Shown here piece by piece: positions 17,045 to 64,000 of a stretch of 64,000 bases of DNA. Made by a program: the position numbers and the translations under genes. Source of the stretch: a virus; IMG/VR virus record IMGVR_UViG_2917587430_000001, positions 25,228 through 89,227 of that record. The stretch is one strand, 5' to 3'. Positions within the stretch are counted from its first letter, which is position 1; each line of letters opens with the position of its first letter. The notes under the pieces were generated by a model, which worked only from the letters and a program-made list of their open reading frames with translations, was not told the DNA's origin and searched no databases.

Positions 17045-17316
17045 AAGCTTCCTGCTACGAGAAACATCGGAAGTTTCAATCCCAGTGGAAGACTTCGGAT
17101 GATTCAACAACTGAGACTGAGGTGTGCGATCGCTGTGTTAGGTCAAGGTTAAAGCCGCTAATCAAGCTTGAAACGGTGGCTGCTGTAAATGGCGATCGCC
17201 CAAAGCTGTTCAAAGGTTACTACAAGGCCTTTAGCCTGCCAAGCTCCTTAGAACTTTGCACTCAAACAGATAATTCTCAAATGCATACCTCTATGAACAG
17301 GTTGAGGCGGCACAAC
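17045..17316 (-). repeat. attI-platform repeat, copy A (5' part)
   Basis: Reverse complement aligns with 35248-35490 (GTTGTGCC.CCTCAACCTGTTCATAGAGGTATGCATTTGA...). Confidence 0.85.
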
Positions 17317-17395
17317 GGCGACATTCACCGGCTGCCAGCAACCTTTCAATCCTAGCCGATCGCTCTCCACAGTCCGGTGCAATGAAGGGTTAGGA
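17310..17395 (-). other. attC site
   Basis: TCCTAAC-CCTTCATTGCACCGGAC...GCAGCCGGTGAATGTCGCC-GTTGTGC. Confidence 0.85.
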
Positions 17396-17412
17396 TGCGG
17401 CAATTCACCAAA

Positions 17413-17850
17413 CTACATTTGGTCATACCCTGAAATGCCCTTCCTCTTACAAAACTGTACTGGATGCAGCAAGTATTCCCGTAACTCCGGATCTTCGTTG
17501 ATGTCTGTGAAACCCTTGATAATTTTGATGTGTGGAAGCGCAGCAACAACATCCTCAAAGACAGCGTTAGCCTCACGGTTGAAGGCAATGCATACCTGTT
17601 GCTGCCAAAGAGAAGGGAGCATTTGATACACGGGATTAAGATATGAGGAGTACCAGCTACCAAGATTTGTAATCTTCTGTATAAGCTCCTCAGATAAACC
17701 GAGTTTTTTTATGTCTTCAAGATTCAAGTAATGATTCCGTTCTTTATCAATCAACTCGCAAGAATAGTCATAGAGAGAGAACGTCAAGGTTTTATGTTCT
17801 TTCACGTAGCTTCTGGTTCTAAACAGAGGTATCAGAATTTTAACCTTCAA
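17413..17850 (-). CDS. Gene cassette: hypothetical protein
   Basis: Lies between two attC sites; TTG start. Confidence 0.65.
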   Translation of the reverse strand: MKVKILIPLFRTRSYVKEHKTLTFSLYDYSCELIDKERNHYLNLEDIKKLGLSEELIQKITNLGSWYSSYLNPVYQMLPSLWQQQVCIAFNREANAVFEDVVAALPHIKIIKGFTDINEDPELREYLLHPVQFCKRKGISGYDQM

Positions 17851-17877
17851 GACTATTCTTCTTACCAGGACACAGCA

Positions 17878-17964
17878 GCCTAACGATCGCGTTCAGCGGC
17901 TGCAAATAATATCGAACTCAGCACCAAAAGCTGTCCTCATTCCGTTGCAACGCACTGGTTAGGT
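17878..17964 (-). other. attC site
   Basis: ACCTAAC-CAGTGCGTTGCAACGG...GCCGCTGAACGCGATC-GTTAGGC; the upstream gene's stop lies in the inverse core. Confidence 0.9.
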
Positions 17965-18552
17965 TGCATTCCTCTGCCCCTGCTTGAGAACCCACAACAA
18001 CCCTGTTCCTTGAATCATGCCTGCTACTATTCCTCCTCTAATAGCAGCCCGCAGCCAATCAGAGCTCTCAGGAATTGTGGGATTATTAAAGAAGGCTGGT
18101 GATGCCAAAATTTGGATTAGCAGAAAGCTAGGAAGGCTGATACTGGCAGCAAGAGAGTCGATAACAATTAGCAACTGCGCTTGGCGATACCTCCTAAGTA
18201 CAAGGTATTGCCCACAGCCAAGCAAAGCACCACTGACAGCGTAGCCAATGCTGAGATTCAACTGTAAAGGTAGGGGTTCGGCAAACAGAAAAACACTGGA
18301 CAATACAAACCCCAACCAGAGACATAAAACGCCCCCAAGAGCTGTAACAGGAATCCACCAGACTGCTTGTCTTAATCTTTGACGAAGGACGAACCATTGC
18401 AAAATACCTAGCAGAAGCGATCCGGTAAAAATGCAGTGACGCAGATCAGAAAGGGGCAAGTTCAGGCTTGCATAGACGGGTAAGACAAAGCCCAACAAGG
18501 TTGTAATTACCCACAGAACTAAAAAGTACCAATAAGGGCGTTGCCTAACCAT
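17959..18552 (-). CDS. Gene cassette: multi-TM membrane protein
   Basis: Repeated G..QW/Y.VLR helices; TAA lies inside attC R''. Confidence 0.75.
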   Translation of the reverse strand: MVRQRPYWYFLVLWVITTLLGFVLPVYASLNLPLSDLRHCIFTGSLLLGILQWFVLRQRLRQAVWWIPVTALGGVLCLWLGFVLSSVFLFAEPLPLQLNLSIGYAVSGALLGCGQYLVLRRYRQAQLLIVIDSLAASISLPSFLLIQILASPAFFNNPTIPESSDWLRAAIRGGIVAGMIQGTGLLWVLKQGQRNAT

Positions 18553-18597
18553 ATATCGCGCCTAGTTAAAAGCAATTGCTGAACAACAACTTCTGCG

Positions 18598-18683
18598 ACC
18601 TAACGGCAGAGTTGAACGGCGGCAACCAACTTCTGCATCATAAACGATCGCCCCTGCTCCGCCGTTCCAACGCAGTGTTCGAC
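18598..18683 (-). other. attC site
   Basis: GTCGAAC-ACTGCGTTGGAACGGCGG...GCCGCCGTTCAACTCTGCC-GTTAGGT. Confidence 0.9.
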
Positions 18684-18786
18684 CATATTCAACAGGTTTG
18701 AGTTGATTTTACTTGCTTTCACTGATTGGTGTTCTTACAGAATTGGGTAGAGTTTTAAGCATAATTCAGTAGCAGGATTAACATCA

Positions 18787-19389
18787 ATGCCTCGTGTCAA
18801 ATGGTTGCTTCTAGGGCTATCTGGTCTCCTGTTAATTGGGTGTTGGCAGATGACTAACACCAATTATGGAAGATTGGAAGCTTTACTTGCTGCCCATCAG
18901 TGGCAGGAAGCTGACCAGCAGACGACTGATATCATCTTGAGAGAGTCTAATTGGGGAATCTCCACCTGGAAGATGTGGGGAGTCGCCCTACTATCAGGCA
19001 AGCTCACGGGTTGGTATGAACCCATCAAACAGTATCCCTGTCATGACCTCGAAATACTTGACAATCTCTGGTTAAAGCACAGTGATGGGCGATTTGGGCT
19101 GAGTGTTCAGCAGCAGATCTTTAAACGTATTGCTACACAATCTAACGATGAGTTTAGAACCTATGATGCCTTTATGGATGAGGTGGCTTGGGATCAACCT
19201 GATCGTTCAAGCAGCACCCCCATCGGGCATTTTCCATCAGAGGATTGGGTTCAAGCTACAACTTACGGTAAAGGAGAACCTTGGATGCTCAGTGCAGTGT
19301 ATATGTACGATCGCATCGAAGAATGCCAGATATCTCAGCCATCTTCGATGAGTCAAACAGATAATGCTAGTAAACCGCCCCAGAGATAA
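18787..19389 (+). CDS. Gene cassette (inverted): GUN4-domain lipoprotein
   Basis: LAAHQWQEADQQT...PCHDLEILDNLWLKHSDGRFGLSVQQQIF...W...PIGHFP; lipobox-like LLIGC. Confidence 0.85.
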   Translation: MPRVKWLLLGLSGLLLIGCWQMTNTNYGRLEALLAAHQWQEADQQTTDIILRESNWGISTWKMWGVALLSGKLTGWYEPIKQYPCHDLEILDNLWLKHSDGRFGLSVQQQIFKRIATQSNDEFRTYDAFMDEVAWDQPDRSSSTPIGHFPSEDWVQATTYGKGEPWMLSAVYMYDRIEECQISQPSSMSQTDNASKPPQR

Positions 19390-19396
19390 CCTTGCG

Positions 19397-19735
19397 GTCG
19401 AACTATTAATTAGACGGAACGATTCTGCCGATCCACCCAGCTTCGGAGAATAGGCAGAATAATTCTGTATATCACTCCAAAACAGGTGGATCGACAGAAT
19501 GATTCTACATAATAGACTGATTTGGGTGGATCTGCAGAATCGTTCCAAATGGAATCAATTCAGTGGAATACAGACCACGAACGTAGGCAAACCTGAAAAC
19601 CTAAGTCTGGGTAAGGGGAGGTCTGGCAGGGTTAAAGCAACTGAACCGTCATTTGCCTGCAAGAAGCACTTGAAGCTTCAGTCTCAGTGGAAAACTTTAG
19701 ATGACTCGACAACTGAAATCAAGGTACGCGCTCGC
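19397..19735 (-). repeat. attI-platform repeat, copy B, with attI-like site at 19397-19415
   Basis: Near-identical to 33225-33552; ends GTCTAAT-TAATA-GTTCGAC. Confidence 0.85.
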
Positions 19736-20234: not shown

Positions 20235-20505
20235 TAAAAATTTCAGTTCCAGTTCGGGGGAAACTCATTTCTTGAAGTGGAAACCAGCCTGACCACTTTG
20301 CCTCTAAACTGGCAAGCTGTGACGGGATTGCATCAGGATGCTCGGCGAGAAACAGAATGTGCTTAGTTGCAGCCTGCCACGCGACCTGAATAGCCGGTGG
20401 TAAGTCCTCCCAGTTGGGCATCGTCTCCCCCCGATAGTTTTTGTTTCCAACGCTGTGCCCATAGGCGCGATAGGCACTAGCTGCAATGATTGAATCTTGG
20501 CTCAT
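20188..20505 (-). CDS. Hypothetical protein
   Basis: AYRAYG...MPNWEDLPPAIQVAWQAA motif seen in small phage proteins. Confidence 0.55.
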   Translation of the reverse strand: MSQDSIIAASAYRAYGHSVGNKNYRGETMPNWEDLPPAIQVAWQAATKHILFLAEHPDAIPSQLASLEAKWSGWFPLQEMSFPRTGTEIFNDAVRQVKDSRSDDE

Positions 20506-20548
20506 AGTGAGTGCGGGAATTTTATGGTGCTACTTCTTTCTAGCGCAC

Positions 20549-21163
20549 ATGAGCATTTTATTTCCCATTCATGAGACGTTTCAGCAGACTCTTCAGGGGG
20601 AAGGGTTTTGGGCTGGAACACCAGTTGATTTCATTCGGCTATCTGGCTGCCCTGTGTCATGCCACTTTTGCGATACAGGTTATGCCGATGGCGGCAAAGA
20701 TACCCCCCGAACCATGCGATCGCTCGACGAATTAATCGCTGAGCTAAAATCCCCGTTTGTGGTGATTTCTGGTGGTGAACCCTTCATCCATTCCAACCTG
20801 CCGGAGCTGGTCAAAGCCCTCGAGTTCAACGGTAAACGAGTGGCGATCGAAACCTCTGGAGCATTCTGGCAAGAGCTGCCCGAGTCAGTTTGGGTTACGG
20901 TTTCACCCAAGGAACACATCAGCCCTAAATATCCAGTTGATGAGCGCTGGTGGCGACGTGCCAACGAAATTAAGTTAGTCATTTCCAGTGGTCAGGAAGT
21001 GTGGTTCTACCGTCCCAAATTGGCTAAAACCACTTGCTCTATCTTCCTCCAGCCGGAGTGGGGCGATCGCGAGAAAACCTTGCCGCTGGTAATGGATTTG
21101 CTCCAGCGCTACACCAACTGTCGCCTCAGCCTACAACTTCACAAGTTTCTCGGAATTCAATAA
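20549..21163 (+). CDS. queE: 7-carboxy-7-deazaguanine synthase (radical SAM)
   Basis: ETFQQTLQGEG...FIRLSGCPVSCHFCDT (CxxxCxxC), ISGGEP, IETSG, TVSPK, LQPEW, SLQLHK. Confidence 0.93.
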   Translation: MSILFPIHETFQQTLQGEGFWAGTPVDFIRLSGCPVSCHFCDTGYADGGKDTPRTMRSLDELIAELKSPFVVISGGEPFIHSNLPELVKALEFNGKRVAIETSGAFWQELPESVWVTVSPKEHISPKYPVDERWWRRANEIKLVISSGQEVWFYRPKLAKTTCSIFLQPEWGDREKTLPLVMDLLQRYTNCRLSLQLHKFLGIQ

Positions 21164-21615
21164 TGAACCCCCAATTTCACTACCCAAAGCATCTACAGGG
21201 CACTGCTGCACCTTATCTGGAGGCGATCGCCTCAACCCAAGGCAGAGTACCAACCACGTTCCAATACCAGATCAGCACAGCCATTCGCCGCAAACACTGC
21301 AATCCGCCGATCTGGACTGACACTCACTTTCATAACTTCCAAATCACACTTCATCTCCAGGCAGTTCGGGGGGTGAGTGCGATGTATGGCATCGACATGA
21401 TTGAAGTTGAAATGCTGCTGAAGGCATGGGCAGAAGCATTGCCTGAAGTGGTCAATGAACACCCGCTCTGCATTGGCGGAACGACTGAGGATCTGTGCCT
21501 CTATTTTGCTCGAATCGAGCTAGACCCTCACATTCAACTGCTGCGCGTAGACGTGGCAGAAACCCCAGAACGTATTACCAGCCTTCCAATACTGCAAACG
21601 ACCTCTCTTAACTGA
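21163..21615 (+). CDS. Divergent QueD-like (T-fold) protein
   Basis: HCNP...HFHNFQIT, GIDM, TTEDL and VAETP parallel the QueD motifs HGHNY/IDF/PTxEN/ETP; translationally coupled to queE. Confidence 0.65.
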   Translation: MNPQFHYPKHLQGTAAPYLEAIASTQGRVPTTFQYQISTAIRRKHCNPPIWTDTHFHNFQITLHLQAVRGVSAMYGIDMIEVEMLLKAWAEALPEVVNEHPLCIGGTTEDLCLYFARIELDPHIQLLRVDVAETPERITSLPILQTTSLN

Positions 21616-21766
21616 GGGAACGTTACCGCAGATTTAGCATCTACTGCGAGGTTCGACAAGTGATTGAATTCAAAACCCTAACGGCAGGGGTGATTTTGGG
21701 CGCTATCTTTGCGATCGCCCATCTGCCAACTCCCGTTCCCTTCACAGTGGCAGGGAGGCTCTAGTA

Positions 21767-22645
21767 GTGGCTAAGAAGTTTTTGCCTACAGTGGTCTGGG
21801 TGCCAATCGACCAGATCACACCCTATATCCACAACAACAAACAGCACCCACAGAGCCAGATTGATAAGCTGGCGAGCTGCATCATTGAGTATGGTTTTGA
21901 TGTGCCCATCGTCGTGGATGAGGATAACGTCATTCTCAAAGGGCACGGGCGACGGATGGCAGCGCTGAAGCTGGGGCTAACTGAAGTTCCGGTGATTAAG
22001 CGAACTGACCTTACGCCAGCGCAAAAGAAAGCCTGCCGCATTGCTGACAATAAGGTTGCAGAATCCCCTTGGGATTTTGAGGCGTTGAAGTTGGAGATGG
22101 CAGCGCTGGATGAAATGAACTTTGATCTGCAGATGACAGGCTTCAGTCTGGAGGAATGCAGCAGTCTGTTTGACTTGGGAGTGATAGACTTCCAGGGCAA
22201 ACAAATCTTTGGTGAGGATGGGCCACCAACACCCCCCGAACCAGACACATCGCATGAGCTAGATGAGGGGCGATCGCCACAGTTCAGCAGGCAAGACGCT
22301 CACGACGACGATGATCAGTCAGAGCTGGAGCGATCGGACGGCTCATTGCTGGAACTGGTAGAGATTGTGATCGCAGAGCCACGCCACCAGGTTCAACGAG
22401 GTCAGGTCTGGCAGCTTGGCAACCATGTCCTGGTAGTCGCCGATGTCCTCACTGGCTGGCAGTCCTGGAAAGATTACCTCTCCGGCGATGCCATCTTTGC
22501 CCCATATCCTGGTCCGTTCGTGCCACTAACCGTCAAGGGTGAGGAACGACGGCTGGTGATGGTGCAGCCAGACGAGTACATTGCTGGGCACATCCTTGAC
22601 CAATATGAGAACGTCAAGGGGGCTGGTAGTGTCCAGCGGGGTTAA
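21767..22645 (+). CDS. ParB/Srx N-terminal domain protein
   Basis: ITPYIHNNKQH...IDKLASCIIEYGFDVPIVVDEDNVILKGHGRRMAALKLG...RIADNK. Confidence 0.85.
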   Translation: MAKKFLPTVVWVPIDQITPYIHNNKQHPQSQIDKLASCIIEYGFDVPIVVDEDNVILKGHGRRMAALKLGLTEVPVIKRTDLTPAQKKACRIADNKVAESPWDFEALKLEMAALDEMNFDLQMTGFSLEECSSLFDLGVIDFQGKQIFGEDGPPTPPEPDTSHELDEGRSPQFSRQDAHDDDDQSELERSDGSLLELVEIVIAEPRHQVQRGQVWQLGNHVLVVADVLTGWQSWKDYLSGDAIFAPYPGPFVPLTVKGEERRLVMVQPDEYIAGHILDQYENVKGAGSVQRG

Positions 22646-23567
22646 GCGCACCGGTGGGGGAACCTTTGACCCTGCTGAGGAGAATGTTTATTTTCTGGCA
22701 TCTGGAGTAGGACGGCTGGCGATCGCCGAGCCGGTCTATGACCACTTGCTGATTGCTGTGAACGAGCTGGAGGGTGAAGGAGCTCTCCAGCAGATTGAGC
22801 AGTGGTGTGACAGCGGCAAAAAGCTGTTCATCGACTCCGGCATCTTTCACCTGACCCAAGAGCACGCCAAGGCACACCGCTGCTCAATGGATCAGGCACT
22901 TGCCATGCCACCCGACGAGATTGACGGCTTCAAAGAACTGTTGGAGCGCTACGTCGAAATCTACAGGCGACTGGGAGATAAGTGCTGGGGCTTTATTGAG
23001 CTAGACCAGGGCGGACGGGAGAACAAGATTAAGACCAGGGCAATGCTGGAGGAGATGGGCTGCAAACCCATTCCGGTCTATCACCCATTCAACGATGGTT
23101 GGGACTACTTTGACTACCTTGCTGAGCGCTATGACCGCATCTGTTTCGGCAACGTGGTGCAGGCTGATCGGGAGACTCGGAAACGGTTTGTCGCCACTGC
23201 CTGGGAACGACACCGCAAGTATCCTCACCTCTGGATTCATCTGCTGGGGCTGACCCCAAACGAATGGCTCAACGCGATGCCAATCAACTCCGGCGACTCC
23301 TCAAGCTGGCTCTCCTGCGTTCGCTGGTCAAGTGGCTATCGGGAGCGCTGCGCGGGCAAAGCTCTCGGAGACATGCCCCGAAACTTCATGTATGCCTACG
23401 GTGCGGATAAGGACAGTCCCAGAGGCAATAACAAGGCTGTAGCGGCAGCCGCCTATGGGTCATTCATGCAGCAACGTAACTGGCGATCGCATCTCAACAG
23501 CTTAAAGAAACTGGGTTGTCAGATTTACCCCAACCCAGTCTCAGAGCAGCCCCCTACTACTGATTAG
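22581..23567 (+). CDS. DpdA/TGT-like guanine transglycosylase (true start probably a little downstream)
   Basis: FIDSG, IPVYH, HLLG and DSSSW motifs of phage TGT-like TIM barrels; adjacent to que genes. Confidence 0.7.
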   Translation: MLGTSLTNMRTSRGLVVSSGVKRTGGGTFDPAEENVYFLASGVGRLAIAEPVYDHLLIAVNELEGEGALQQIEQWCDSGKKLFIDSGIFHLTQEHAKAHRCSMDQALAMPPDEIDGFKELLERYVEIYRRLGDKCWGFIELDQGGRENKIKTRAMLEEMGCKPIPVYHPFNDGWDYFDYLAERYDRICFGNVVQADRETRKRFVATAWERHRKYPHLWIHLLGLTPNEWLNAMPINSGDSSSWLSCVRWSSGYRERCAGKALGDMPRNFMYAYGADKDSPRGNNKAVAAAAYGSFMQQRNWRSHLNSLKKLGCQIYPNPVSEQPPTTD

Positions 23568-23609
23568 TATGGCTCGACATCAATGCTGAAAGTTGTGCAA
23601 AGGCAGTTA

Positions 23610-24086
23610 TTATTCGTACTCTTGCTCACTGTATCTGAACTCAAATATGCGTTTAGCAATTAATTGCATTTTGAGATCAGCTCCCAGATAGTCTCCGCCT
23701 CGGACATCTTGAGAGTTTGCCGTTCCCTGAACATCACTTATCCAGTCCAGCCCCCGTCGATGATTGAATGAATACCAGCTAGAAATTTGTAAGTCCACTG
23801 CATTTTGAAACTGAGCAGATAAAACATTCAGCTCTTGAACATTAGATGCATCAGTTTCTACTTCAACGGACAAAGTTATACGTTGAGTAACTAAGATTCG
23901 CTCGGGGACAGATTGTCCACTAATCTTGCTAACCATCTCCCCCAACTTAAAGTTGATCTTCAGCGCTTTGCCAGTCAACTGAAATCGACTTTGATAACGT
24001 TCGTGTTGCAACGCCCTTTCAAGTCGTGGAATTAATCCAGCATCACCATCAAGCAAAAGTTTACGGACTGTTAGTTGCTCAGCCAT
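23610..24086 (-). CDS. Hypothetical protein, possibly tail-completion-like
   Basis: Length and beta-strand pattern only. Confidence 0.4.
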   Translation of the reverse strand: MAEQLTVRKLLLDGDAGLIPRLERALQHERYQSRFQLTGKALKINFKLGEMVSKISGQSVPERILVTQRITLSVEVETDASNVQELNVLSAQFQNAVDLQISSWYSFNHRRGLDWISDVQGTANSQDVRGGDYLGADLKMQLIAKRIFEFRYSEQEYE

Positions 24087-24388
24087 TGCCTTGCTCTTTC
24101 AAAACATCTTTCTGCTGTCCGCATTGTATCTACAAGACGATCGTCTAGAGAGGTTTGGTCTTTGCCACCTCGTTAAACGAGACTTGCCCTCGCGAACCGA
24201 CAAAACTCACACAAAAAAACGTGCGATCGCCTGTCGGTTTTAGTTAACAAATTAGGGGTAAAACGACCCATTAGGCAAAACGCTTACCTGTTTACAAATC
24301 AGGGCGAATTCGACAAATCGTTTACCTAGCACATGCATGTCAACACCCTGCCGCAAAGGGAACACTCGCTCAAACATCTGAACTCATC

Positions 24389-24754
24389 ATGATTGCAACT
24401 ACTACTGTTCCAACCGTCTCAATGACCACAGCGATCGCCCGCTTCCAGGTTCCCGGTTTCCATTGCTGGGCTGGGGCAAGTGGCGATCGCCAATACTTGG
24501 CTGACCGTCACCGTCACCTGTTTCATATCGAAGCTCGAATTGAATTATTTGGAGATGATCGGGAAGTCGAGTTTCACGACTTCTTGGACTTCTGCCGCGC
24601 TAACTTCCCAGGTGGAGAGATGGGAGGTCAGAGCTGTGAGCAGATGGCTGAGGATTTAATTGAGAAGATTGGCGATCGCTACCCAGGAAGATGGATTCAA
24701 GTGTCTGTTTTTGAAGATGGGGAAGTTGGGGCTGAAGTTAGCCAGTTGCCGTAG
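24389..24754 (+). CDS. Second, phage-type QueD-like T-fold protein
   Basis: GFHCW...YLADRHRHLFHIEARI...DREVEFH...SCEQMA...VSVFEDGEVGA. Confidence 0.7.
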   Translation: MIATTTVPTVSMTTAIARFQVPGFHCWAGASGDRQYLADRHRHLFHIEARIELFGDDREVEFHDFLDFCRANFPGGEMGGQSCEQMAEDLIEKIGDRYPGRWIQVSVFEDGEVGAEVSQLP

Positions 24755-52197: not shown

Positions 52198-52230
52198 GAT
52201 ATCGATCCTCCTTAACAGCGCGTCTTTCCA

Positions 52231-54036: not shown

Positions 54037-54053
54037 GGCTGGGCAACACCAAA

Positions 54054-54974: not shown

Positions 54975-55085
54975 TTCTACTGTGTTACTGATTGATACGA
55001 CAAACTCGCGAGATAATACCTAGTTTTTCAATAACTAATGCAGAATAACTCTCCCAGTTCCGGTATTACCCAGCATTTATCCTTG

Positions 55086-55275
55086 ATGGCACAACATCCT
55101 TCCCCTTGCCTATTAGGTCAGGTACAGCAATCTATCCAACTCAAGCATTTCAGCTTAAAGACTGAGAAATCCTATATTGACTACATCCGCGATTTCATCC
55201 TGTTTCATTACAGCGGCACCTTGAAGGAATGAGGACAGATGGAACTCAAGCCTACTTGGAACTAGCTAGAAGGTT
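55086..55275 (+). pseudogene. intI: Integron integrase 5' remnant, frameshifted and truncated
   Basis: LLGQVQQSIQLKHFSLKTEKSYIDYIRDFILFH, then in a shifted frame RHLEGMRTDGTQAYLELA, matching the IntI N-terminal SAM-like domain. Confidence 0.8.
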
Positions 55276-55495
55276 TGAATACTTTCGAGGTTTAACATCG
55301 AGTTCATCTCATTAGGCAGTTGCTTCAACATACCAGCAGACGCAAATTGCATCAAATCCAGCAGGAGAGCGATCGCCCGTCAAAACGCTGCCTCAAAGAC
55401 CTCTAGTCTTTTGCATTCACTAACTTGAGGAAAGCCGCAGAATTCCCGTAATCCTTGGCGTGGGAACTCTCGGACGGAGTTTCTGAGCGTCTTCT

Positions 55496-58400
55496 GTGGC
55501 AACTACTGTTGGCGAATTAGTGCTGGAGTTGGGCTTAGACCCAACTATTTATAACGAAGGTCTGGAGAACGCGCACAAAGACGCGATCGCCATTGGTCAG
55601 GAGATAGAGGCAAGCTTACGGACATCTCTACCAGTCCTTACGCCCAAAGTTGATGACTCAGCTCTAACGAAACTGAATAAGCATTATGACCTTAAAGAAC
55701 GCCATGCCAAGCAGGTCAACCGCTACCTTTCTCAGAACCCGCTCAAAGTCAAAGTTGATTTCTCTCAACTGAACCAGCTTGAGCGCAAATTAGACAGGCT
55801 TGAGCGACGCAGAACCATTGCCTCAATTAGCACTCAAGCTAGCGGCAGTTCGGGGGGTGACTCTAACTCTCAACTTGCTGAGATGATCGGCAAGGCAGTT
55901 GCACGAAATCTTAGACCGGGTTTGGCAGGACGCGCAGCGGGGTTAGTGGGGAATGTTCTAGCAACTCCCGGCAGGGTAGCTGGCAGAACACTGGCTGGGG
56001 TTGCTGAAGGGTTGATGTTCGGCGTAACGCAGGAGGTCAGCCGCAACTTAGGCAAAGGGTTATCAAAAGCAATTGAGAATAGCCTTTCTAGTTCTGTAGG
56101 CAGTTCAGAGCTATTAGGGGAGAAGGTTGGAGGGGCGATCGCTCAATCAATGGGGCGATCGATGTCCAGCAAGTTTAAGGATTTACCTGAGAACTTAAAC
56201 AACCTGGTAGATGGATTAGAAGTTGACTCTAAGCTAAGGCGTAAGTTCAAGCAAGCGATTACTGAAATAGAAGATTTTCAGAAGCAGGCTGGAGAACTGC
56301 TAACCGAAACTTTGGGCGGACAACCAGCAATTCAACAAGAAGCGTTATATCAGCGTGGAACTCAATCTCGCGATCGCCGGCGCAAAACTCCTATAACTCA
56401 AGACCAGGCAGCAGAAGAGTGGCGCGAGTCGTTACGGACTAGGGATCGGGTACAGGCTTTAGCAGCCACCAGGACAACTAAAAACAGTCAACAACTCCAA
56501 CGCTTGAGGGGTGAATACGGCGGCACTCAGCGACAGTTTGCAGAACTGGAGAACCAGATTCAACAAGCTCAACAGTCTGGTGCTCCAGCCGAAGAAATCG
56601 AAGGGCTGACAACTCAGCTCAGGCGAACTGGAGCTAAGCTGCAAGGCTTGGCTCAAGCAATGCAGAACGTTATTAAGTACCAAGAAACTGTTGATAAGGC
56701 TGTAGTTGAAGCACAACAACGTGTCAGGGCAGGCTATCAACGAGTACAGACTCTAGCTCCAAAACCTCAGCCTAGAACTTATGTAGATTTAGTTCGTCAA
56801 GTCACCGGCAAAGATTTAGCACCAGACAAAATTCCTCAATTGAGGATTGCAGACGCTTCACTCAAAAAATCTGGAGCGCTCAGCCAATACGACCCCGCTC
56901 GAAATGCAATCGAAGTAACTCGTAAAACTTACGAAGCGATTGAGAATAACACCCTCACTCCTCAGCAAGTTGAGATGCTGAAGGAGGAGCTAGAACATGC
57001 TGTAGATTTCGACTTTGGCTCCTTCCGTGGGCTACAAGCTGCCAAACAGAGCCGAGTAGTGGGTAAACCTGTTGTTCCTACTGCTGAGGAGTTTGCTGCG
57101 ATCGCCCCTGGACTAGCTCCCTATGCTCCAGAGCGGAGGGCACTAGAGCTAAATGCCAAAGTCAAAGCCCGTAGAGGCATGACTGCCTATGAACAAGAGT
57201 CTAAGCAAGGACTGTTGCTCAATAATGTCCCAACTCTGGCTTCTAATAAGGAGGCGATCGCTAACCAAAGAACGCAGTTGCAGGCAAAATTGCAACAGAT
57301 TGGAAAAATTAGCGCTCTAACCGGAAACGACCTATCAAAAGCACTTGAGTCTTACAACGGTTTCTTCGATTCACTTCAGCAGAAAATAGAACGAACTGTT
57401 GAAGAAATGCTGTCAGATATTGATGGCTTAGATCAGTCTAAGGTCAACTCTATCGTCCAGAAGATAAAAGGCTATTGGGGAACCGTAGAGGGATTGAATC
57501 AGAAGGTCAATCAACTACTTCAGAAACAAATTGATGATGTTTCTGTTACCTCTAACTATGACGTTTGGACGGGCAAATTAGAGCGTTCTAAAAATTCAGG
57601 CTTATCCAATCAACCTCTAGGAACGGTTGATGATAAGTTTCTAGATCCAAATTTCGATCCGTTTGCGATAGATCGTCCCCCTGTTGCAATTCCCCTTCAG
57701 TTATCCATGCCAGAGGCAGAGCTTGTACCCGTACAGATTCAGCCTAAGCAGTCTCAAGCCATATCTAACACAGGTAAAGGCTTTACAAAACCAGCACAGA
57801 AGACAATTGATGCAACTAATCAAACCATTGCAAAAGTCACTCAAGCTGCTGCTCAAACTACTCAAAGTGCGATCGCTGAAGCCCAGAAGTTAGAAAATGC
57901 TTTCTCTGGCTTGTACAAGGGGTTGCAGGACGCAATCAAGAAGGGGGATGACCAGCTTGTAAAGGCTTACGGCAACGAGCTTAAAGATATGGCAGAGACT
58001 AGCCGCTCTGCCATCAACGCTTTAGTTGAACAAGCTAAACAGTCTGGTGAGGCGTTTGGATCAGAAGCCTTAGCCAAATTGGGAGGAGTGAAAGGTAGGC
58101 TAACTCAGCGCTTCAACTTAGCTCAACGAGGTACGGCAAAATACGAGCGGAAGAGGGCTGCTGAAGGAGAAGACTTAACGGCTCAATCCTTAGACCCAGA
58201 AGCCGCTAGGGGAGTTAACAAAACCCTTCAAACTCTAAAGCGCTCAATCCACAGATCAATTGATACGCTAAATTCTCTAACTGCCAGTCTCGCCAATGTT
58301 GAGCCACAAGAGAGCTTTGGAAAAACCCTTCAGAAAGCAGCGGTTTCGGAGCGTGGCAAAGACCTTTTAGTCAATACTGGCGGATTCATCGCATCTAACC

Positions 58401-61400
58401 TTGCCAGCCAGCAGGGACTGTTGCCAGAACTGGGAGGCGATTTGATTGGAGCACTTGTTACTCGACAAGTCGTTGAAGCTGGCATTGCTGGCAAGGATGC
58501 TTACAGCAAGCTTCAGAACGACGAAACCTTTAAAGCAGCAGATGCTCTGAAGAAGTTTTCGATGATCCTTACCGAGGTCACCGCAAAGCTGCAAAGTTCT
58601 GAATTTGGTGAGGAGCAGAACGGGGCGTTATTTGGTGACATTGCAGGGTTTACTGTCGGCAATTTGATTAAGGAGTTGCCTAAAACCATTGCTCCAGGTC
58701 TACCAGGAATGGATCTGCTAGGTCAGATACCCGGTAGAGGAGCACTGGCAGCTTCTCAGGCAGTTCCAATGCTCTCGAAGATGAGGGCGCAGATTACTCA
58801 GCAATTACAGTCCGGTCAATACAGTGGCGAAGAGTTGAAAGCTCAACGCCTAGACCTCAGCTACAAAGGGCTGAAACCCAATAAGCAGATGAATGATGCC
58901 GAGAGAGTCTTTCTTGAGCACATCATTGAGCTGTTGGACGATGCGATTGTCAAAGCAAGACAATTTGACCTTGCTTTTGGCATGTTAGACGCGCCTTCAA
59001 TGAGGCAGTTTGAAGAGAGCCTTGAGGGAGTAAACGAAGCGCTGGACTCAGACGGCACAAAGATTGTTGCTCAGGTTCAGAAAACTATTGCTGATTACGA
59101 AAGAACTGTTCAAGAGTTAGAGAAAAGCTACGCTGAGCGATTCCAAACCTCACAGGATGACCTTGATGAAACATTCCGCTATCGCGAAGCTTATGCCGAG
59201 TTACTTGGAGATGGACAAGACCCACAGGAGTTAGACCTGGCGATCGTTCCTCCCAGACCACCTGAGGGTGACGGTTTCTTTGGAGCACTGAGAGGAGATC
59301 TTGACGATATTGTTCAACGGCTCGGCGGCTTAAAGAACGCCGCAGGAGTGGCGTTCAAGGCAATCGTTGGGTTTGCGGCAGCTAGCATTGTTCTCCCATT
59401 TTTGACCGAGCTTGCGACCTCTGCTCTGGACGTAGCAACGGAGATGGAAGGGCTAGAGCGTCGGTTTAAGTTTGCCTATGGGTCGATGGCGGAGGGGCGT
59501 GCTGTCATAGCAGAGGTTAGAACCGATGCAAATGCGCTCGGAGCTGACCTGAGACAGGCATTGGAGGGGCGTGCTCAGTTGGCGATCGCTGCGAAGGGTA
59601 CGGCGGCACAAGGCGAAATCGCAGACCAAACAGCCAGAGCAATCACGCAGGCGGGTACTGTGTATGGACTGAACCCAGAGCGACAGCAAAATGCAAATCT
59701 GGCAGTCGCCCAGATGTTTCAAAAATCGGTGATCAGCGCAGAAGAACTGCGTGGGCAGCTCTCGGAGACGGGGCTAGGTAACCCTATTCAGACAATGGCG
59801 GACGCAGTGGGTGTTGACGTTGCTGAGTTGAACAAAATGATGGAAAGACGGGAATTGGTAATCGAAGAGGTATTTCCTAAATTTTCGGCACAACTTAACG
59901 CTGAAACTTCTGTTGCTATTCCTGACCTAGCATCGTCTTCTCAAGCTTCGATCAACCGCTTCAATAACTCAATGTTGAACGTGCAGGAGAGCATTGGTAA
60001 GCCTCTGCTACCTGTTCGCAATACAGGATTAGATGTTCTTGCAAGCAGTATGGATTTAGCGTCCAACTCAGCCGGAACATTGGTGAAGACATTTGGGGCG
60101 ATCGCACTGACCCCAGTTGTCAAAATGTTGTTTGATGTTGCTAAGTCAGCGATCGCCTCAGCTCAAGGAATGACACTGGCTGGAGTTGGAGTTAAAACGC
60201 TTGACTTCAGCATGAAATCGCTTGCTAGCACTGCAAAGTTTGTGAAAGGGGCTTTAGGAGCAGTTGCGCTTCCTGCTGCCATTTTCTTGGCGATCGATGT
60301 CGTTAGCTCTTTTGGCAAAGCCTTCAAGGACGCAGGTGGAGAGGTGCGAGAATTTGCAGAGCAAGGCGTAACCAGTTTGCAAAAATATGACGAAGCTCTA
60401 GCCAATCTACAAAATCGTTCTGGTAGAGGTTTAACACCCCCCGAACTACCACAGCCGACTGGAGTTCAAACCGAGTTTGGCGACACAGGTGAAACACTAA
60501 TGAGTGGACCGCTCGGTGCCTTTGAGCGATTTATTCAGAATGACTCGATTGGCAAGGCGATCGGAACATACATGCCTCTTAGAACGTATGGGCAAGTTCA
60601 GGCGGAGCAACAATCTATTGCCCAAAGCGACTTTTTGCTTAATACCAGCGATACTCGCGGACGACTTTTAGGGGAACTTCAGAGGTATGACCTAAACCCT
60701 GACGGAGAAGGGTTAATTGCTCAAGTTCGAGGCATTGATCAGCAGTTAGAGGAAACCCAGGGACAACGACGGGCACTGTTGCCGGGAGATATAGAAGGAC
60801 GTAGAGCGCTCGACAAGCAAATAGACGAGTTGTTGCAACAGCGTGAAGAACCTGGTCGGCTGTTGGCACAGTTGAAACAGCTAAATTTGAGCAAAATTGA
60901 GCAGCTTCAGCAGCAGATTCAGGCAGCTTCAGCAGCAGGTGACACCGAGTCTTTAAGCAGGCTTCAAAGCGAGTTAGACGCTACTACTGCGGCAGTAGAC
61001 AAGCTCAACGGCTTGATTGGCAAAACTCCTGATGTGCTGGGACGGTTGGCGCGTGGGTTTGCTGAAATTCAGGCTGAGCTGGAACAACTGAACATGGAGC
61101 TGGATCGCAGCGCTGCCTCTAATCGGAAAGCGATCGCCTCTGCCCAAATCTCGGGTGCAACGCCGGGAGAGCTTGAGTTTGCCCGGAGTTTGGCAGATCA
61201 AACCAATATGCGCGGAAGGATAGGCGCGAACCAGTCTGCAATCGATCGGATTCGCAGCACGGTAACAGGTAGTCAGGAAACAATGGATGCTTTGAGTTCT
61301 GTAGGAATCAACTCCATTGACCAGATTAATCCTGCTGACCTGACTGGAAGAATCCAAAACATGGAGGACTCCACTCAAAAGAGTCTGATTGAGCAGGCGA

Positions 61401-63433
61401 TCGCCCAGAAACAGCAGATTGATAGCCTCACTACCCAGAACTTCGATTTGGATGCCCAAGTTCAAGAGAGCCAAGCCGCTGCTGTTGAAAAGCTGAGAAG
61501 CTTGGCAAATCAGGTTTTTGACTTCTTCAGAGGCATTGAGCAAGCCGCACGGGATACTCAATTACAAGCCCAACAGACCGCTCTGCAAATCCAAACTGAG
61601 GCGGCTCAGAGCAGATTGAAAGGGGCACTGATCGGTTTCCAAGACTCGTTCCTCAATGATTTTGTCAACTCGCTGGTTGGCATGATTGAGGCACTGAATA
61701 AGCCGCTCAATGATGCGATCGCCGCTCAGCAGCAAATTCTTTCAGCTCAAAATCAATACTTCCAGCAGATTCAACAGTCGTTCCAACTGGGTCAGCAATT
61801 ACCTAGCAATCAACAAGTGGCAGCGATGGCAGGTGAACAAACTGCCCCGTCTGACCCATTCACCCCACTGCCAGCGGGTCTGCCTATTGCACCAACTAGT
61901 GGGCAGGGACAAGGACGAGGGGTGATTGCCCCCGGTTCACGGCAGTTAGCAGCAGCTGTGCCAGCCATCCCAGTTGGGTCTACTCAGATGACGGCTCCTC
62001 AAATTCAGGGGCAGCTTGGGGCACTGGCGCAACTCGACCCAGTATCGGCGCAAGCATTCAGCCAACAAGGGTTAGACGCTGCGGCAGCGCAGGCAGCGCA
62101 GAACTACCAGGCGCAGGTAGACATGATTAATCAGCAGCTTGCAGCCTCACAGCAGTTTGCTCAGCTTGAGGCAACGATGCAGGCAGACTCAGCCAATCGT
62201 TCCCTGTGGGAGGCAACGCGACGGATTGACGACACGTCGAGGGGCTATACCCGCAGTCTGCAAGACCTATTTGCACGGGGAGAGGTAGAGACACCGCTCA
62301 CCCAAATTCAGGGGACTTTCCGAGGCATGACGCGAGAGTTTGAGGACTCTATGCGCGGCATGGAGGACTTCCGGCGTGGTTTGCAACAGACTGTAGACCA
62401 AGCTGAGATGTTGCAACAGGTCATTCGTGACGGTGTGGCTCAAGGCATCATGCCGCGTGAAATGCTGCAAATGTTGCCGCAGTTGCAACAAATGTCAGAT
62501 GCAGCTAGAGATGACCTGAACGAGCTAGCTGGCACGATGACTGATTATGAGCAAGCCTTTGAACAGGCAGTGCGACGGCAACAGGATGAGTTCAAACGAC
62601 AAGAGGGTGAGCGGCGTTTTCAGGCACGGCAACGGCTTGGAGGATACGACGTACAGATGTATGGCGAACGAGCGCAGCAGGCACGGCTAGGAGGCAACGA
62701 GGGTGTTGCTCGCAGTTTGGAGTATCGGGCTAGATATCTGGAGACGCAAAACCAGTATGAGGGACAGTTCCGGGAACTTCAGGAGTTGCAGCGCACCGGA
62801 CAGATTACCGCTAACGAATTTGAACGGATGGCAGGGGCGTTGCAAGGACTGAACCAGATTTCACTAAGGAACCTGCGAACGGAGGTAGAGAAGACGAACA
62901 ATGAGATTGCAGCTAGTGCTCTATTTGGGGGACAGGGGCAGGATATGAACCGAGGCGATCGCCGTCGAGTGCTGCGGGATGCCCAGGAAGATTTCAGGTT
63001 GGCAGCTAGCACTGGAGAGTTAAACCAGAGTCAACAAAGAGAGTTTCGCGAAGCATTCAGTGCAGTTAACAGCAGCGGGAATGCCTCAGATCAACAGTTG
63101 GTCAGACTGTCCAATCGCTTTCAGGACAATGCTTTCTTCAACGAATTGATGCAGATGACAGGGCGTGGAGATATAACGGCGATCGCCGGCATTTCGGAGC
63201 AAACTGCCTCTACTCGAATGACTGAGACAGCAGATCAAGGTTCGTCAATGATCGAGGCATATCGAGCTGCAAACAGTGGTGTTGAGCAGCGGTTAGACAC
63301 ACTCAACACCAATATTATTCAATTGGCAAACTCGCCGCGATCGCTGACCGTGCAAACTCCAGACCCCATTAGGGATATGGGTCAAATTCTTTCCGAGCAA
63401 AGTAGACAGAAAATGGAGTCGATAGGACTGTGA
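55496..63433 (+). CDS. Tape measure protein (2645 aa)
   Basis: MATTVGELVLELGLD N-terminus; tape-measure motif QMFQKSVISAEELRGQLSE; extended Ala/Gln-rich helices. Confidence 0.88.
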   Translation: MATTVGELVLELGLDPTIYNEGLENAHKDAIAIGQEIEASLRTSLPVLTPKVDDSALTKLNKHYDLKERHAKQVNRYLSQNPLKVKVDFSQLNQLERKLDRLERRRTIASISTQASGSSGGDSNSQLAEMIGKAVARNLRPGLAGRAAGLVGNVLATPGRVAGRTLAGVAEGLMFGVTQEVSRNLGKGLSKAIENSLSSSVGSSELLGEKVGGAIAQSMGRSMSSKFKDLPENLNNLVDGLEVDSKLRRKFKQAITEIEDFQKQAGELLTETLGGQPAIQQEALYQRGTQSRDRRRKTPITQDQAAEEWRESLRTRDRVQALAATRTTKNSQQLQRLRGEYGGTQRQFAELENQIQQAQQSGAPAEEIEGLTTQLRRTGAKLQGLAQAMQNVIKYQETVDKAVVEAQQRVRAGYQRVQTLAPKPQPRTYVDLVRQVTGKDLAPDKIPQLRIADASLKKSGALSQYDPARNAIEVTRKTYEAIENNTLTPQQVEMLKEELEHAVDFDFGSFRGLQAAKQSRVVGKPVVPTAEEFAAIAPGLAPYAPERRALELNAKVKARRGMTAYEQESKQGLLLNNVPTLASNKEAIANQRTQLQAKLQQIGKISALTGNDLSKALESYNGFFDSLQQKIERTVEEMLSDIDGLDQSKVNSIVQKIKGYWGTVEGLNQKVNQLLQKQIDDVSVTSNYDVWTGKLERSKNSGLSNQPLGTVDDKFLDPNFDPFAIDRPPVAIPLQLSMPEAELVPVQIQPKQSQAISNTGKGFTKPAQKTIDATNQTIAKVTQAAAQTTQSAIAEAQKLENAFSGLYKGLQDAIKKGDDQLVKAYGNELKDMAETSRSAINALVEQAKQSGEAFGSEALAKLGGVKGRLTQRFNLAQRGTAKYERKRAAEGEDLTAQSLDPEAARGVNKTLQTLKRSIHRSIDTLNSLTASLANVEPQESFGKTLQKAAVSERGKDLLVNTGGFIASNLASQQGLLPELGGDLIGALVTRQVVEAGIAGKDAYSKLQNDETFKAADALKKFSMILTEVTAKLQSSEFGEEQNGALFGDIAGFTVGNLIKELPKTIAPGLPGMDLLGQIPGRGALAASQAVPMLSKMRAQITQQLQSGQYSGEELKAQRLDLSYKGLKPNKQMNDAERVFLEHIIELLDDAIVKARQFDLAFGMLDAPSMRQFEESLEGVNEALDSDGTKIVAQVQKTIADYERTVQELEKSYAERFQTSQDDLDETFRYREAYAELLGDGQDPQELDLAIVPPRPPEGDGFFGALRGDLDDIVQRLGGLKNAAGVAFKAIVGFAAASIVLPFLTELATSALDVATEMEGLERRFKFAYGSMAEGRAVIAEVRTDANALGADLRQALEGRAQLAIAAKGTAAQGEIADQTARAITQAGTVYGLNPERQQNANLAVAQMFQKSVISAEELRGQLSETGLGNPIQTMADAVGVDVAELNKMMERRELVIEEVFPKFSAQLNAETSVAIPDLASSSQASINRFNNSMLNVQESIGKPLLPVRNTGLDVLASSMDLASNSAGTLVKTFGAIALTPVVKMLFDVAKSAIASAQGMTLAGVGVKTLDFSMKSLASTAKFVKGALGAVALPAAIFLAIDVVSSFGKAFKDAGGEVREFAEQGVTSLQKYDEALANLQNRSGRGLTPPELPQPTGVQTEFGDTGETLMSGPLGAFERFIQNDSIGKAIGTYMPLRTYGQVQAEQQSIAQSDFLLNTSDTRGRLLGELQRYDLNPDGEGLIAQVRGIDQQLEETQGQRRALLPGDIEGRRALDKQIDELLQQREEPGRLLAQLKQLNLSKIEQLQQQIQAASAAGDTESLSRLQSELDATTAAVDKLNGLIGKTPDVLGRLARGFAEIQAELEQLNMELDRSAASNRKAIASAQISGATPGELEFARSLADQTNMRGRIGANQSAIDRIRSTVTGSQETMDALSSVGINSIDQINPADLTGRIQNMEDSTQKSLIEQAIAQKQQIDSLTTQNFDLDAQVQESQAAAVEKLRSLANQVFDFFRGIEQAARDTQLQAQQTALQIQTEAAQSRLKGALIGFQDSFLNDFVNSLVGMIEALNKPLNDAIAAQQQILSAQNQYFQQIQQSFQLGQQLPSNQQVAAMAGEQTAPSDPFTPLPAGLPIAPTSGQGQGRGVIAPGSRQLAAAVPAIPVGSTQMTAPQIQGQLGALAQLDPVSAQAFSQQGLDAAAAQAAQNYQAQVDMINQQLAASQQFAQLEATMQADSANRSLWEATRRIDDTSRGYTRSLQDLFARGEVETPLTQIQGTFRGMTREFEDSMRGMEDFRRGLQQTVDQAEMLQQVIRDGVAQGIMPREMLQMLPQLQQMSDAARDDLNELAGTMTDYEQAFEQAVRRQQDEFKRQEGERRFQARQRLGGYDVQMYGERAQQARLGGNEGVARSLEYRARYLETQNQYEGQFRELQELQRTGQITANEFERMAGALQGLNQISLRNLRTEVEKTNNEIAASALFGGQGQDMNRGDRRRVLRDAQEDFRLAASTGELNQSQQREFREAFSAVNSSGNASDQQLVRLSNRFQDNAFFNELMQMTGRGDITAIAGISEQTASTRMTETADQGSSMIEAYRAANSGVEQRLDTLNTNIIQLANSPRSLTVQTPDPIRDMGQILSEQSRQKMESIGL

Positions 63434-63539
63434 GATATGGACGAGCAGCATCTTCTCATCATTGCCTAACTGGAATTGATAGCTGCAATTTAGAGAAAGA
63501 CATTTAGGCTTAATTATTGGATTGGGTCACCGTTCTTGA

Positions 63540-63622
63540 GCAGAACTTTTCATGTAAGCGGCATGAGTTTTTGAGATATTACCAGCAGTTTTGCGTCCGT
63601 CCGCTGCAAGCGCTGGTTAGAC
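63540..63622 (-). other. attC site
   Basis: GTCTAAC-CAGCGCTTGCAGCGGACG...CATGCCGCTTACATGAAAA-GTTCTGC. Confidence 0.8.
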
Positions 63623-63633
63623 CACGACCTACA

Positions 63634-64000
63634 TCACAAGTGCTTTTGGATATAAGTCGCTGTTGAGTTCTCATGAGGAAATGCCTCTTCTGGAATTTCT
63701 AGATCAAGCGCTCGACACAGCGGCTCCCAGCCGTTACTAGCCTCCCATTCAAGTAGCCTTTGCCCTAAGCCAGAGTTCCGGACAAGCTCATTGTGCCGAT
63801 CAAAAGCTTCGATACAGACTGAGCGATTAGCCAGGTCTAGGGTAAATTTATTCTCAAACAATTCATTGATCATAGAGCGCCACGCACCTTCCGATTTCCT
63901 GATTCTTGGAAAGATCGTTGAACTTGCACTCTGCCACCATAAATCAGCGTCTCTATGGGAAAGAATAATAAGAGAGTTAGGGTAGATAGTACTCAACTCA
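63634..64000 (-). CDS. Gene cassette: P-loop sulfotransferase-family protein, C-terminal part
   Basis: YPNSLIILSHRDADLWWQS...HNELVR...RLLEW...GWEPLCRAL..IPEEAFPHEN; ORF runs off the window. Confidence 0.8.
   Translation of the reverse strand, partial: ELSTIYPNSLIILSHRDADLWWQSASSTIFPRIRKSEGAWRSMINELFENKFTLDLANRSVCIEAFDRHNELVRNSGLGQRLLEWEASNGWEPLCRALDLEIPEEAFPHENSTATYIQKHL

Follow-up and report, generated by a model that had tools for sequence, protein, structure and literature searches.

The stretch of DNA studied here (the window) is 64,000 nucleotides long and spans bases 25228-89227 of the 113,599-bp IMG/VR record IMGVR_UViG_2917587430_000001. Genes of a tailed phage alternate in it with blocks of DNA that carry attC, the sites that mark integron cassettes. 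The window has seven of these blocks and the whole record eight, with both strands represented, and each is headed by an attI-like platform (three copies), by a truncated relic of the integron integrase gene intI (three copies) or by nothing recognisable. All positions are those of the window unless they are marked "genome", in which case they count along the whole record. An earlier note on this DNA, made from its letters alone, had described 15 attC-like sites in several AT-rich blocks between phage genes, and had read them as cassettes that a cyanophage repeatedly captures and keeps as a renewable supply of defence and envelope genes. Our comparisons indicate that the sites are genuine integron attC organised as cassettes, of the same class as the attC that adjoin intact intI genes in cyanobacterial and other chromosomes.

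We detect the sites with covariance models. Because a MAFFT alignment of nine sites misplaced the conserved boxes (8- versus 9-nt spacers), the search was bootstrapped from four hand-aligned phage sites of equal length. The resulting model, R1, finds seven further sites in the window and four outside it, none of them in its training set, at E 2e-12 to 0.05; the seven in the window all score E < 0.01, down to 2e-6. A second model, R2, was rebuilt from 15 hits and run without filters over the window, and brings the count for the record to 19 sites, 15 in the window and four outside. Thirteen of the 15 window sites listed in the earlier note match R2 (11 of them are training members), one is weak and one marginal; three listed sites absent from the training set, at 53964, 48239 and 63540, score from E 3e-6 to E 0.014. 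The 42 kb of backbone in the window hold no R2 match better than E 0.2, and four related phage records (~172 kb) hold none at E 0.01 or better. Two simpler searches were discarded: a scan for complementary RYYYAAC/GTTRRRY pairs gives 108 matches over the whole record and does not discriminate, and a scan with a hand-made description of the architecture gives 26 matches against ~11 in shuffled sequence and misses most true sites.

Read on the strand of the cassette open reading frames (ORFs), a site begins with a 7-nt R'' box, followed by five unpaired bases, a 3-bp stem, an unpaired G, a 6-bp stem (mostly CAsCGG) and an unpaired A; then come ~41 variable bases, the partner strands of the 6-bp and 3-bp stems, six unpaired bases and the R' box GTTRRRY. 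In attC geometry as defined in PMC2727003, the spacer is asymmetric and it is the R''-L'' arm of the bottom-strand hairpin that carries the unpaired bases. The phage sites have a spacer of 5 nt on one side and 6 nt on the other, and all their extrahelical bases lie on that arm. Pairing is seen in 91% of pair cells and falls to 25-42% once the partners are shifted out of register, and compensatory changes occur in 10 of the 16 pairs, both figures being biased towards structure since the alignment was fitted by the model. The AAC and the GTT of the two boxes (RYYYAAC in R'', GTTRRRY in R') are both present in 15 of the 19 sites, and the remaining four carry changed cores (AAA, AGC, CTTCGGG, GGTAG). 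A stop codon inside the inverse core, which the earlier note had seen in most sites, is found in about three only. The R'' box is the reverse complement of the R' box, and only the extrahelical bases and the unequal spacer can therefore show which way a site points; read in this way, both orientations are indeed present, as the note had said, though the symmetric cores could not have told them apart, and each site lies downstream of its ORF.

The same kind of site occurs beside full-length integrase genes in bacterial genomes. A scan of 596 Gb of genomes for the exact pattern returns at least 120 stretches; among the matches listed, most come from filamentous cyanobacteria, and multi-site arrays are found in a few Proteobacteria, Planctomycetota and Acidobacteria. 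An IntI above the TIGR02249 cut-off is encoded in all five pattern-bearing genomes tested and in none of 14 control genomes. Conversely, arrays detected by R2 flank all six full-length intI genes tested (from three cyanobacteria and one proteobacterium), and the 41 sites in these arrays are without exception on the strand that points away from intI, which validates our assignment of orientation. One contig of a proteobacterial metagenome-assembled genome (MAG), CAVTQT010000004.1 (L156), has 27 R2 matches in 15 kb by an intI with one in-frame TGA; it is a large sedentary integron with an attC class close to the cyanobacterial one.

One cassette of the window can be aligned with a chromosomal counterpart. 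The cassette at 41835-43730 matches, over 1,897 bp and at 88.7% nucleotide identity, the cassette that comes first in a complete integron on the chromosome of Leptothermofonsia sp. ETS-13; the intI of this integron reaches 469 bits (cut-off 265). The homology runs from the GTTATGC core to the GTTAG of the cassette's own attC, and what lies upstream of it is an attC in the phage and attI in Leptothermofonsia. Such an alignment indicates that at least one cassette has been exchanged with the host integron pool, and at the level of the cassette. Neighbouring sites, moreover, keep the complementarity of core and inverse core expected of cassettes that were once circular, a feature that the earlier note had pointed out for each cassette. 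Of 4 variable positions, 2.79 match between adjacent sites and 1.87 between non-adjacent ones (p ~7e-4), and 10 of 11 pairs within blocks match at 3-4 of the 4. The three adjacent pairs without complementarity are those split by a platform or by backbone genes, so that its loss defines the edges of the blocks.

A group II intron marks one of the sites in a further way. It lies in the attC that closes the cassette of an Mrr-like nuclease, matches the Rfam families RF02001 (128.8 bits), RF01998 (50.7 bits) and RF00029 (45.9 bits), and has the junctions ...GGGTTGT/GTACG... and ...CCCGAT/TATC; when it is removed, both the TAA stop of the nuclease gene and the inverse core of the attC at 35172 are restored. 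Group IIC-attC introns target TTGT/T (PMC7923331), and the phage copy resembles them in lying on the attC bottom strand, within R'' and opposite to cassette transcription. It differs from them in that its ~705 nt contain no reverse-transcriptase ORF, so that it would depend on a helper. We place it in this class by its ribozyme match and insertion position, not by phylogeny. The association with intI in hosts, the shared cassette, the complementarity of cores and the intron at TTGT/T are four independent lines, and it is on these that our identification of the sites rests; the attC-like sites of the earlier note can accordingly be taken as real. Table 1 gives the position of each feature.

Table 1. 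Integron features and phage genes of the window and of the rest of the record (R1 and R2, covariance models; z, folding energy of the bottom strand relative to shuffles)
Feature	Position	Strand	Details
Block A	17045-19735	-	
Block B	33155-35254	+	
Block C	35255-38667	+	
Block D	about 41400-46743	+	
Block E	about 47933-50386	+	
Block F	50387-55037	-	
Block G	from 63434, running out of the window	-	
Block H (eighth)	after first tape-measure gene, outside the window		
attC, last site of block A	17310-17395	-	R2 79.5 bits, E 7e-20; training member; predicted bottom-strand hairpin with bulged base; R' (GTTGTGC) followed by partial attI-platform copy
attC	17878-17964	-	closes cassette with ORF 17959-18552 (-); R1 untrained E 1e-4; R2 E 5e-16; TAA stop of the ORF inside the inverse core; core matches upstream site 7/7
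attC, first site of block A	18598-18683	-	R2 E 2e-17; training member
attC	35172-35254	+	closes Mrr-like restriction endonuclease cassette (ORF 33618-34469); R1 untrained E 2e-6; R2 E 5e-15; z -4.1
attC	38583-38667	+	closes three-ORF cell-wall-hydrolase unit (36015-38541); R1 untrained E 1e-5; R2 E 4e-16; z -4.0; inverse core mutated (AAA)
attC, first site of block D	41758-41842	+	R2 E 1.5e-14; training member; 83% identical to attC at genome 92653-92737, flanks unrelated
attC	43646-43732	+	R2 E 1e-12 or better; training member; belongs to cassette 41835-43730
attC	46658-46743	+	closes caspase-like and alpha/beta-hydrolase unit (43731-46597); R2 E 2e-16; core matches upstream site 7/7
attC, weak and degenerate, start of block E	48239-48329	+	R2 24.5 bits, E 3e-4, untrained; no hairpin predicted
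attC	50301-50386	+	closes cassette with 165-aa ORF and TIR-domain protein (49019-50266); R2 E 1.5e-13
attC remnant, marginal, distal end of block F	50600-50682	-	R2 13 bits, E 0.46; 5' half good, 3' half lost; R'' matches upstream R' 6/7
attC, block F	51244-51328	-	R2 E 2e-14; training member
attC, block F	52231-52315	-	R2 E 3e-12; R' damaged (CTTCGGG)
attC, short (73 nt), block F	53964-54036	-	closes first cassette of the block (ORF 54054-54974); R2 31.5 bits, E 3e-6, untrained
attC, weak, distal site of block G	63540-63622	-	just after tape-measure gene; R2 18.3 bits, E 0.014, untrained; beyond the window the block reaches a second intI relic
attC, rest of block G	genome 89488, 90529, 92653		outside the window; E 1e-14 or better; core match at 3-4/4 variable positions
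Cassette shared with Leptothermofonsia	41835-43730	+	363-aa ORF, YtxH-like 163-aa ORF, own attC (43646-43732)
attI-like platform heading block A (putative)	19401-19735	-	91-94% identical to 33222-33548, 83% to 35421-35703
Partial platform copy	17055-17309	-	directly downstream of attC 17310; 76-87% identical to 35255-35499
attI-like platform heading block B (putative)	33155-33552	+	
attI-like platform heading block C (putative)	35255-35714	+	starts right after attC core
Truncated intI relic	55038-55378	+	~first 40-55 IntI residues, frameshifted; divergent from block F; TIGR02249 N-terminal match only
Further intI relics	genome 15961-16206 and 92994-93233		
Group II intron, ORF-less	34469-35173	-	~705 nt; on bottom strand of attC 35172-35254, at TTGT/T of R''
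Tape-measure gene	55496-63433	+	2,645 aa, PF20155
Paralogous giant gene	genome 6505-14466	+	2,653 aa; 78-85% nucleotide identity to window copy
Tyrosine phage integrase	15892-16917		341 aa, generic
7-deazaguanine-type cluster	20486-24754		
Transposase-like gene	27724-29589	-	621 aa, phrog_506
Duplicated segments	29627-31229 and 31700-32336		inverted duplicates near the right end of the record (genome 108071-110694)
TerS-like gene	47206-47724	-	between blocks D and E
Helicase/HNH gene	genome 102601-106656	-	outside the window; 1,351 aa

Summed over the window, the blocks come to 20.4 kb, with 42.6% GC and 0.49 copies of the HIP1 repeat per kb, against 49.5% GC and 1.91 HIP1 per kb in the backbone, in line with the AT-rich blocks of the earlier note. 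HIP1 (GCGATCGC) is abundant in the record, as it is in cyanobacteria. Integron DNA takes up ~20 kb of the window and ~26 kb of the record (roughly a quarter). Blocks A, D, E, F and G each hold 2-4 attC less than 4 kb apart, and so count as clusters of attC sites lacking integron integrases (CALINs); in blocks B, C and H one site is accompanied by a platform. The two paralogous tape-measure loci, each consisting of the tape-measure gene, an array, an intI relic and a LexA-like gene, are 78-90% identical in their flanks, have one attC in one locus and four in the other, and carry unrelated cargo.

The cassettes encode an Mrr-like nuclease (Pfam Mrr_cat), three cell-wall hydrolases (Pfam Amidase_3, DUF2272, and 3D with SH3), a caspase-like protease (Pfam Peptidase_C14) with an alpha/beta hydrolase, a TIR protein (Pfam TIR_2, 1e-24; PDC-S66 and ThsB-like in PADLOC), a GmrSD_N/NsnA-like protein with a HEPN partner, and proteins that PADLOC likens to PDC-S59 and PDC-S64 (the latter is ORF 54054-54974), in addition to a sulfotransferase, a YtxH-like protein and several proteins without a family match. 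To judge from these families the cargo is mostly of defence type with some cell-wall enzymes, in keeping with the defence and envelope genes of the earlier note, and it probably serves the lysogen as anti-phage defence.

The platforms that head three of the blocks are units of ~345-460 bp, present in three copies that are 80-94% alike and in a partial fourth. They contain palindromes at 40-nt spacing and end in ...TCTAATCAATA/GTTAG, beyond which the copies diverge. This tail (...TCTAAT(C/A)AATA/GTTAG) and the repeats are kept in eight cyanobacterial loci, always upstream of attC and co-oriented with it. In Microcystis (L035) the architecture lies between a full intI and its array, and analogous repeats stand before the shared cassette in Leptothermofonsia (L153). 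Host loci keep the looser architecture but not the platform's exact 13-bp palindrome. With a tail and repeats shared with host loci, and with that position between intI and array, we read the platform as a putative cyanobacterial-type attI.

The three intI relics point away from minus-strand blocks, which is the classical divergent layout, and their first ~40 codons are 50-57% identical to the N-termini of cyanobacterial IntI. They break off at the same truncation point and run on into a common unrelated tail of ~100 bp (~190 bp in two of them), and two contain frameshifts or stop codons; they are evidently copies of one relic. An intact IntI was not found anywhere in the record, where the best TIGR02249 matches reach 20-31 bits against the cut-off of 265 and are N-terminal fragments only, and none of the blocks therefore forms a complete integron. 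The 341-aa integrase, considered as a candidate IntI, was ruled out (TIGR02249 20.6 bits) and is a generic phage integrase. Since the phage has no IntI of its own, any recombination at these sites would need that of a host, and to this extent the proposal of the earlier note, a host IntI acting in trans, stands.

The backbone in which the blocks are set is that of a tailed temperate phage, with capsid, terminase, tail and lysogeny genes spread across the record. These include a major capsid protein (phrog_212, E 8.6e-80), a scaffold protein, a major-tail-like protein, the large terminase subunit TerL (phrog_38, E 1.9e-105), a sigma factor, two CI/LexA-like repressors, the integrase and the giant gene with its tape-measure domain. 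IMG/VR describes the entry as linear, with a CheckV completeness estimate of 100%, and as a whole viral contig, not a trimmed provirus. No terminal repeats are present in the 113.6 kb, and a tRNA scan found no tRNA. A wrap-around assembly of a 74-kb circle was considered and ruled out, the flanks of the duplicated tape-measure loci being different.

One relative, G001, is a complete 89,480-bp record with direct terminal repeats and no attC, whose capsid protein is 74% identical and which is collinear with the record through the giant gene, head genes, integrase, 7-deazaguanine genes, methyltransferase, TerS-like gene and sigma factor. The earlier note had proposed to align related prophages, to see whether the blocks are variable inserts at conserved backbone positions; in the comparison with G001, genes that flank blocks in the record (for example the methyltransferase, a 270-aa gene and the TerS-like gene) have homologues close together in G001, and a 48-bp gap after the giant gene of G001 corresponds to a 2.6-kb integron relic in the phage. 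The several blocks between backbone genes, at least six in the earlier note and seven by our count in the window, are supported. The record is 24 kb longer than G001, a difference that its integron load of ~26 kb matches. Megablast found no match to the backbone among GenBank phages, a search of IMG/VR through the integrase found no relatives, and metagenome contigs retrieved through the LexA-like protein are only distant relatives (28-43% identical). The major capsid protein has no match in four attC-rich cyanobacterial genomes and four distant matches in 401 sampled cyanobacterial genomes, the best at 63%; the attC sites of that best-matching genome are not on its prophage contig.

Some features of the backbone deserve a brief description. 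Each giant gene is followed by an integron relic and then by a LexA/CI-like gene, and G001 has a single homologue of 3,369 aa in an unusual position upstream of its head genes. The 7-deazaguanine-type cluster, with radical-SAM QueE-like, PTPS/QueD-like, ParB-like and TGT/DpdA-like genes, is conserved with G001 (the TGT/DpdA-like proteins are 85% identical) and belongs to the backbone, outside the cassette blocks. The transposase-like gene lies in a stretch that G001 lacks. The TerS-like gene is a 78% nucleotide paralogue of the gene at genome 96358-96873, which adjoins TerL. About 2.5 kb of the 3' part of the helicase/HNH gene is 86% identical in nucleotides to a Microcystis aeruginosa MAG contig (L071) with an attC directly 3' of its helicase gene; homology with the phage ends at the stop codon, after which no attC-like fold is seen, and a 121-nt attC candidate at this place (genome 102478-102598) was rejected for want of an L-box fold. 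A GTTCGGGGGGTG-type motif recurs in backbone genes (13981-14019, 21340-21376, 55824-55860 and elsewhere), as the repeat families D13 and I14.

A number of observations weigh against reading this DNA as an integron-bearing phage. The attC calls rest on a model that was trained on these sites, although the model cross-detects host integron arrays. The comparison with classical attC is based on the aadA site. The extrahelical base by the 3-bp L stem is a G on the coding strand of the phage sites and a C on their bottom strand, where classical attC have G20'' (PMC2727003); the same C in place of G is seen in arrays adjoining intact host intI genes, and 6 bp further in there is another unpaired base, a T on the bottom strand. 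Bottom-strand folding, which the earlier note had named as a check, gives a divided answer, in that about nine of the 15 minimum-energy folds have the expected L-box stem with its bulge(s) and only three of the 15 sites reach a folding energy of z <= -3.4 against shuffles. About a third of the sites (~7 of 19) have damaged cores or weak L boxes, which leaves ~12 apparently intact, and the inverse core of the shared cassette is AGC in the phage and AAC in Leptothermofonsia. On the side of the phage, all relatives found are distant (major capsid protein 62-76% identical), and the record holds an insertion-sequence (IS)-type transposase, an intron, pseudogenes and segmental duplications, including the two ~2,650-aa tape-measure paralogues, and has no terminal repeats.

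The folding energies, mostly no better than those of shuffles, would suit a family of unrelated palindromic repeats that resemble attC, such as repetitive extragenic palindromic (REP)-like or miniature inverted-repeat transposable element (MITE)-like sequences or terminators. We give this explanation next to no credence, given that the model finds arrays in canonical orientation by six of six intI, that homology with a host integron is exact to the cassette, that cores are complementary, that a IIC-attC-type intron sits at the canonical position, and that intI relics and attI-like platforms stand at the heads of blocks. A chimera, in which assembly joined phage contigs to pieces of host integrons via shared repeats, has to be thought of in a metagenome record with repeats of 80-94% identity, but seems very improbable: each of the seven or eight blocks has phage backbone genes on both sides, the repeats are too diverged to collapse in assembly, and the paralogous loci keep the same flanks. 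The missing terminal repeats, together with the transposase, intron, pseudogenes and duplications, mean that the record may be a resident or defective prophage. In its stronger form this would be a non-infective, decaying prophage or phage-derived island of a cyanobacterial chromosome whose cassettes do not travel in virions, to which the ORF-less intron, the pseudogenised intI relics, the partial duplicates of backbone genes and the 24 kb in excess of the complete relative G001 would all be suited. We think it rather unlikely, because the entry is a whole viral contig whose ends carry no recognisable host genes, frames are open in the head, terminase, tail, integrase and repressor genes that we searched, and the blocks lie within a stretch collinear with a relative that has terminal repeats. 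The earlier note, taken in its strong form, amounts to an active, self-renewing collector of cassettes with many separate captures, ongoing exchange through host IntI and carriage between hosts in virions. Three platforms with intact GTTAG crossover tails, ~12 well-formed attC, paralogous tape-measure loci that differ in cassette content, a cassette common to phage and host integron and candidate hosts that encode IntI all speak for it, and we hold it to be doubtful without being far-fetched. Relics that share their truncation point and platforms that are near-copies make internal duplication the simpler account of the dispersal, and repeated capture is not demonstrated by them; a renewable supply is not demonstrated either, when about a third of the sites are damaged and the shared cassette, at only 88.7% identity, ends in a decayed attC in the phage.

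The explanation that we prefer, and to which as a whole we attach a probability of roughly 0.8, is that the window comes from the middle of a temperate siphovirus-like cyanophage or prophage of 113.6 kb, and that real integron cassettes and platforms in its backbone go back to few captures, duplication and turnover in trans. One or few captures with internal duplication would fit better than many independent captures, given the common truncation point and tail of the relics and the near identity of the platforms. A cyanobacterial host would have supplied the phage lineage with one or a few integron fragments, made up of platform and cassettes, and these would then have multiplied and changed place inside the phage genome. 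IntI-type recombination, attC x attC and attI x attC, may later have altered the cassettes in them, with IntI provided in trans by IntI-positive hosts during lysogeny. Today's load would accordingly be a mix of apparently intact and decayed sites, and a good part of it looks frozen, as the damaged sites and the mutated inverse core of the shared cassette suggest; both argue against current activity at the sites concerned. A bolder and, in our judgement, rather improbable extension is that the phage acts as an integrase-less shuttle with several platforms, which IntI-positive cyanobacterial hosts would load and unload during lysogeny, and that it would carry a changing stock of defence cassettes from host to host; the LexA/CI-like genes beside the intI relics might then couple this to the SOS response.

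Integrons in phages have been described before. Among 10,705 phage genomes, Qi, Rajabal, Ghaly, Tetu and Gillings (2023, PMC9892861) report 3 complete integrons, 1 In0 and 17 CALINs, including one Shewanella prophage with two arrays that each have their own attI; they show that phage attC recombine with IntI1, describe divergent attC orientations and multi-ORF units, and propose transfer by phages. Our record resembles theirs, in which intI is truncated or complete, in having attC, cassettes, truncated intI and putative attI in a phage genome. It differs in that their illustrated examples have ~2-4 attC each and no cyanophage is named in their main text, whereas here we count 19 sites in 8 blocks, with 3 platforms, 3 relics, an intron of IIC-attC type and a cassette that can be traced to a host chromosomal integron. 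Among the top-ranked literature matches for cyanophage with integron or attC, none deals with cyanophage integrons. Seven other IMG/VR contigs match the site pattern, and the six that we searched have 1-5 sites each, several of them at contig ends. Phage-borne integrons are thus known, and the present record appears to be an unusually large case, with the richest phage-borne cassette load found.

Cyanobacteria themselves have sedentary integrons and CALINs (Cury et al., 2016, PMC4889954) and an attC model of their own (Ghaly et al., 2021, PMC8352920), and CALINs that lie near intI pseudogenes are known as a minority state. The phage shares its attC class and attI-like architecture with the chromosomal integrons of Leptothermofonsia, Egbenema, Leptolyngbya JSC-1 and Microcystis; its arrays, unlike the one chromosomal array beside intI, are short and scattered in the backbone, and its intI relics keep only the first ~40-55 residues. 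Defence systems are reported to be enriched in integron cassettes (Darracq et al., 2024, bioRxiv 10.1101/2024.07.02.601686; Kieffer et al., 10.1101/2024.07.02.601719). The cassettes reported there are likewise compact and of defence type, as are the TIR, restriction endonuclease, GmrSD/NsnA-like with HEPN, caspase-like and PDC candidates here, and differ in belonging to chromosomal and plasmid integrons of bacteria, while here the carrier is a phage.

Our analysis extends phage-borne integrons to Cyanobacteria, and to a size well beyond what has been described until now. The cassettes of integrons have come to be regarded as a rich store of compact systems against phages, whose movement between distant bacteria is understood only in part. 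The integron DNA of this phage comes from the pool of cassettes on which the chromosomal integrons of cyanobacteria also draw, with one cassette traceable boundary for boundary. Its attI-like platforms, well-formed attC and paralogous loci with different cargo would be concrete substrates for a trans-acting IntI on a viral genome, and its cassettes provide a set of candidate defence genes with a phage as their carrier.

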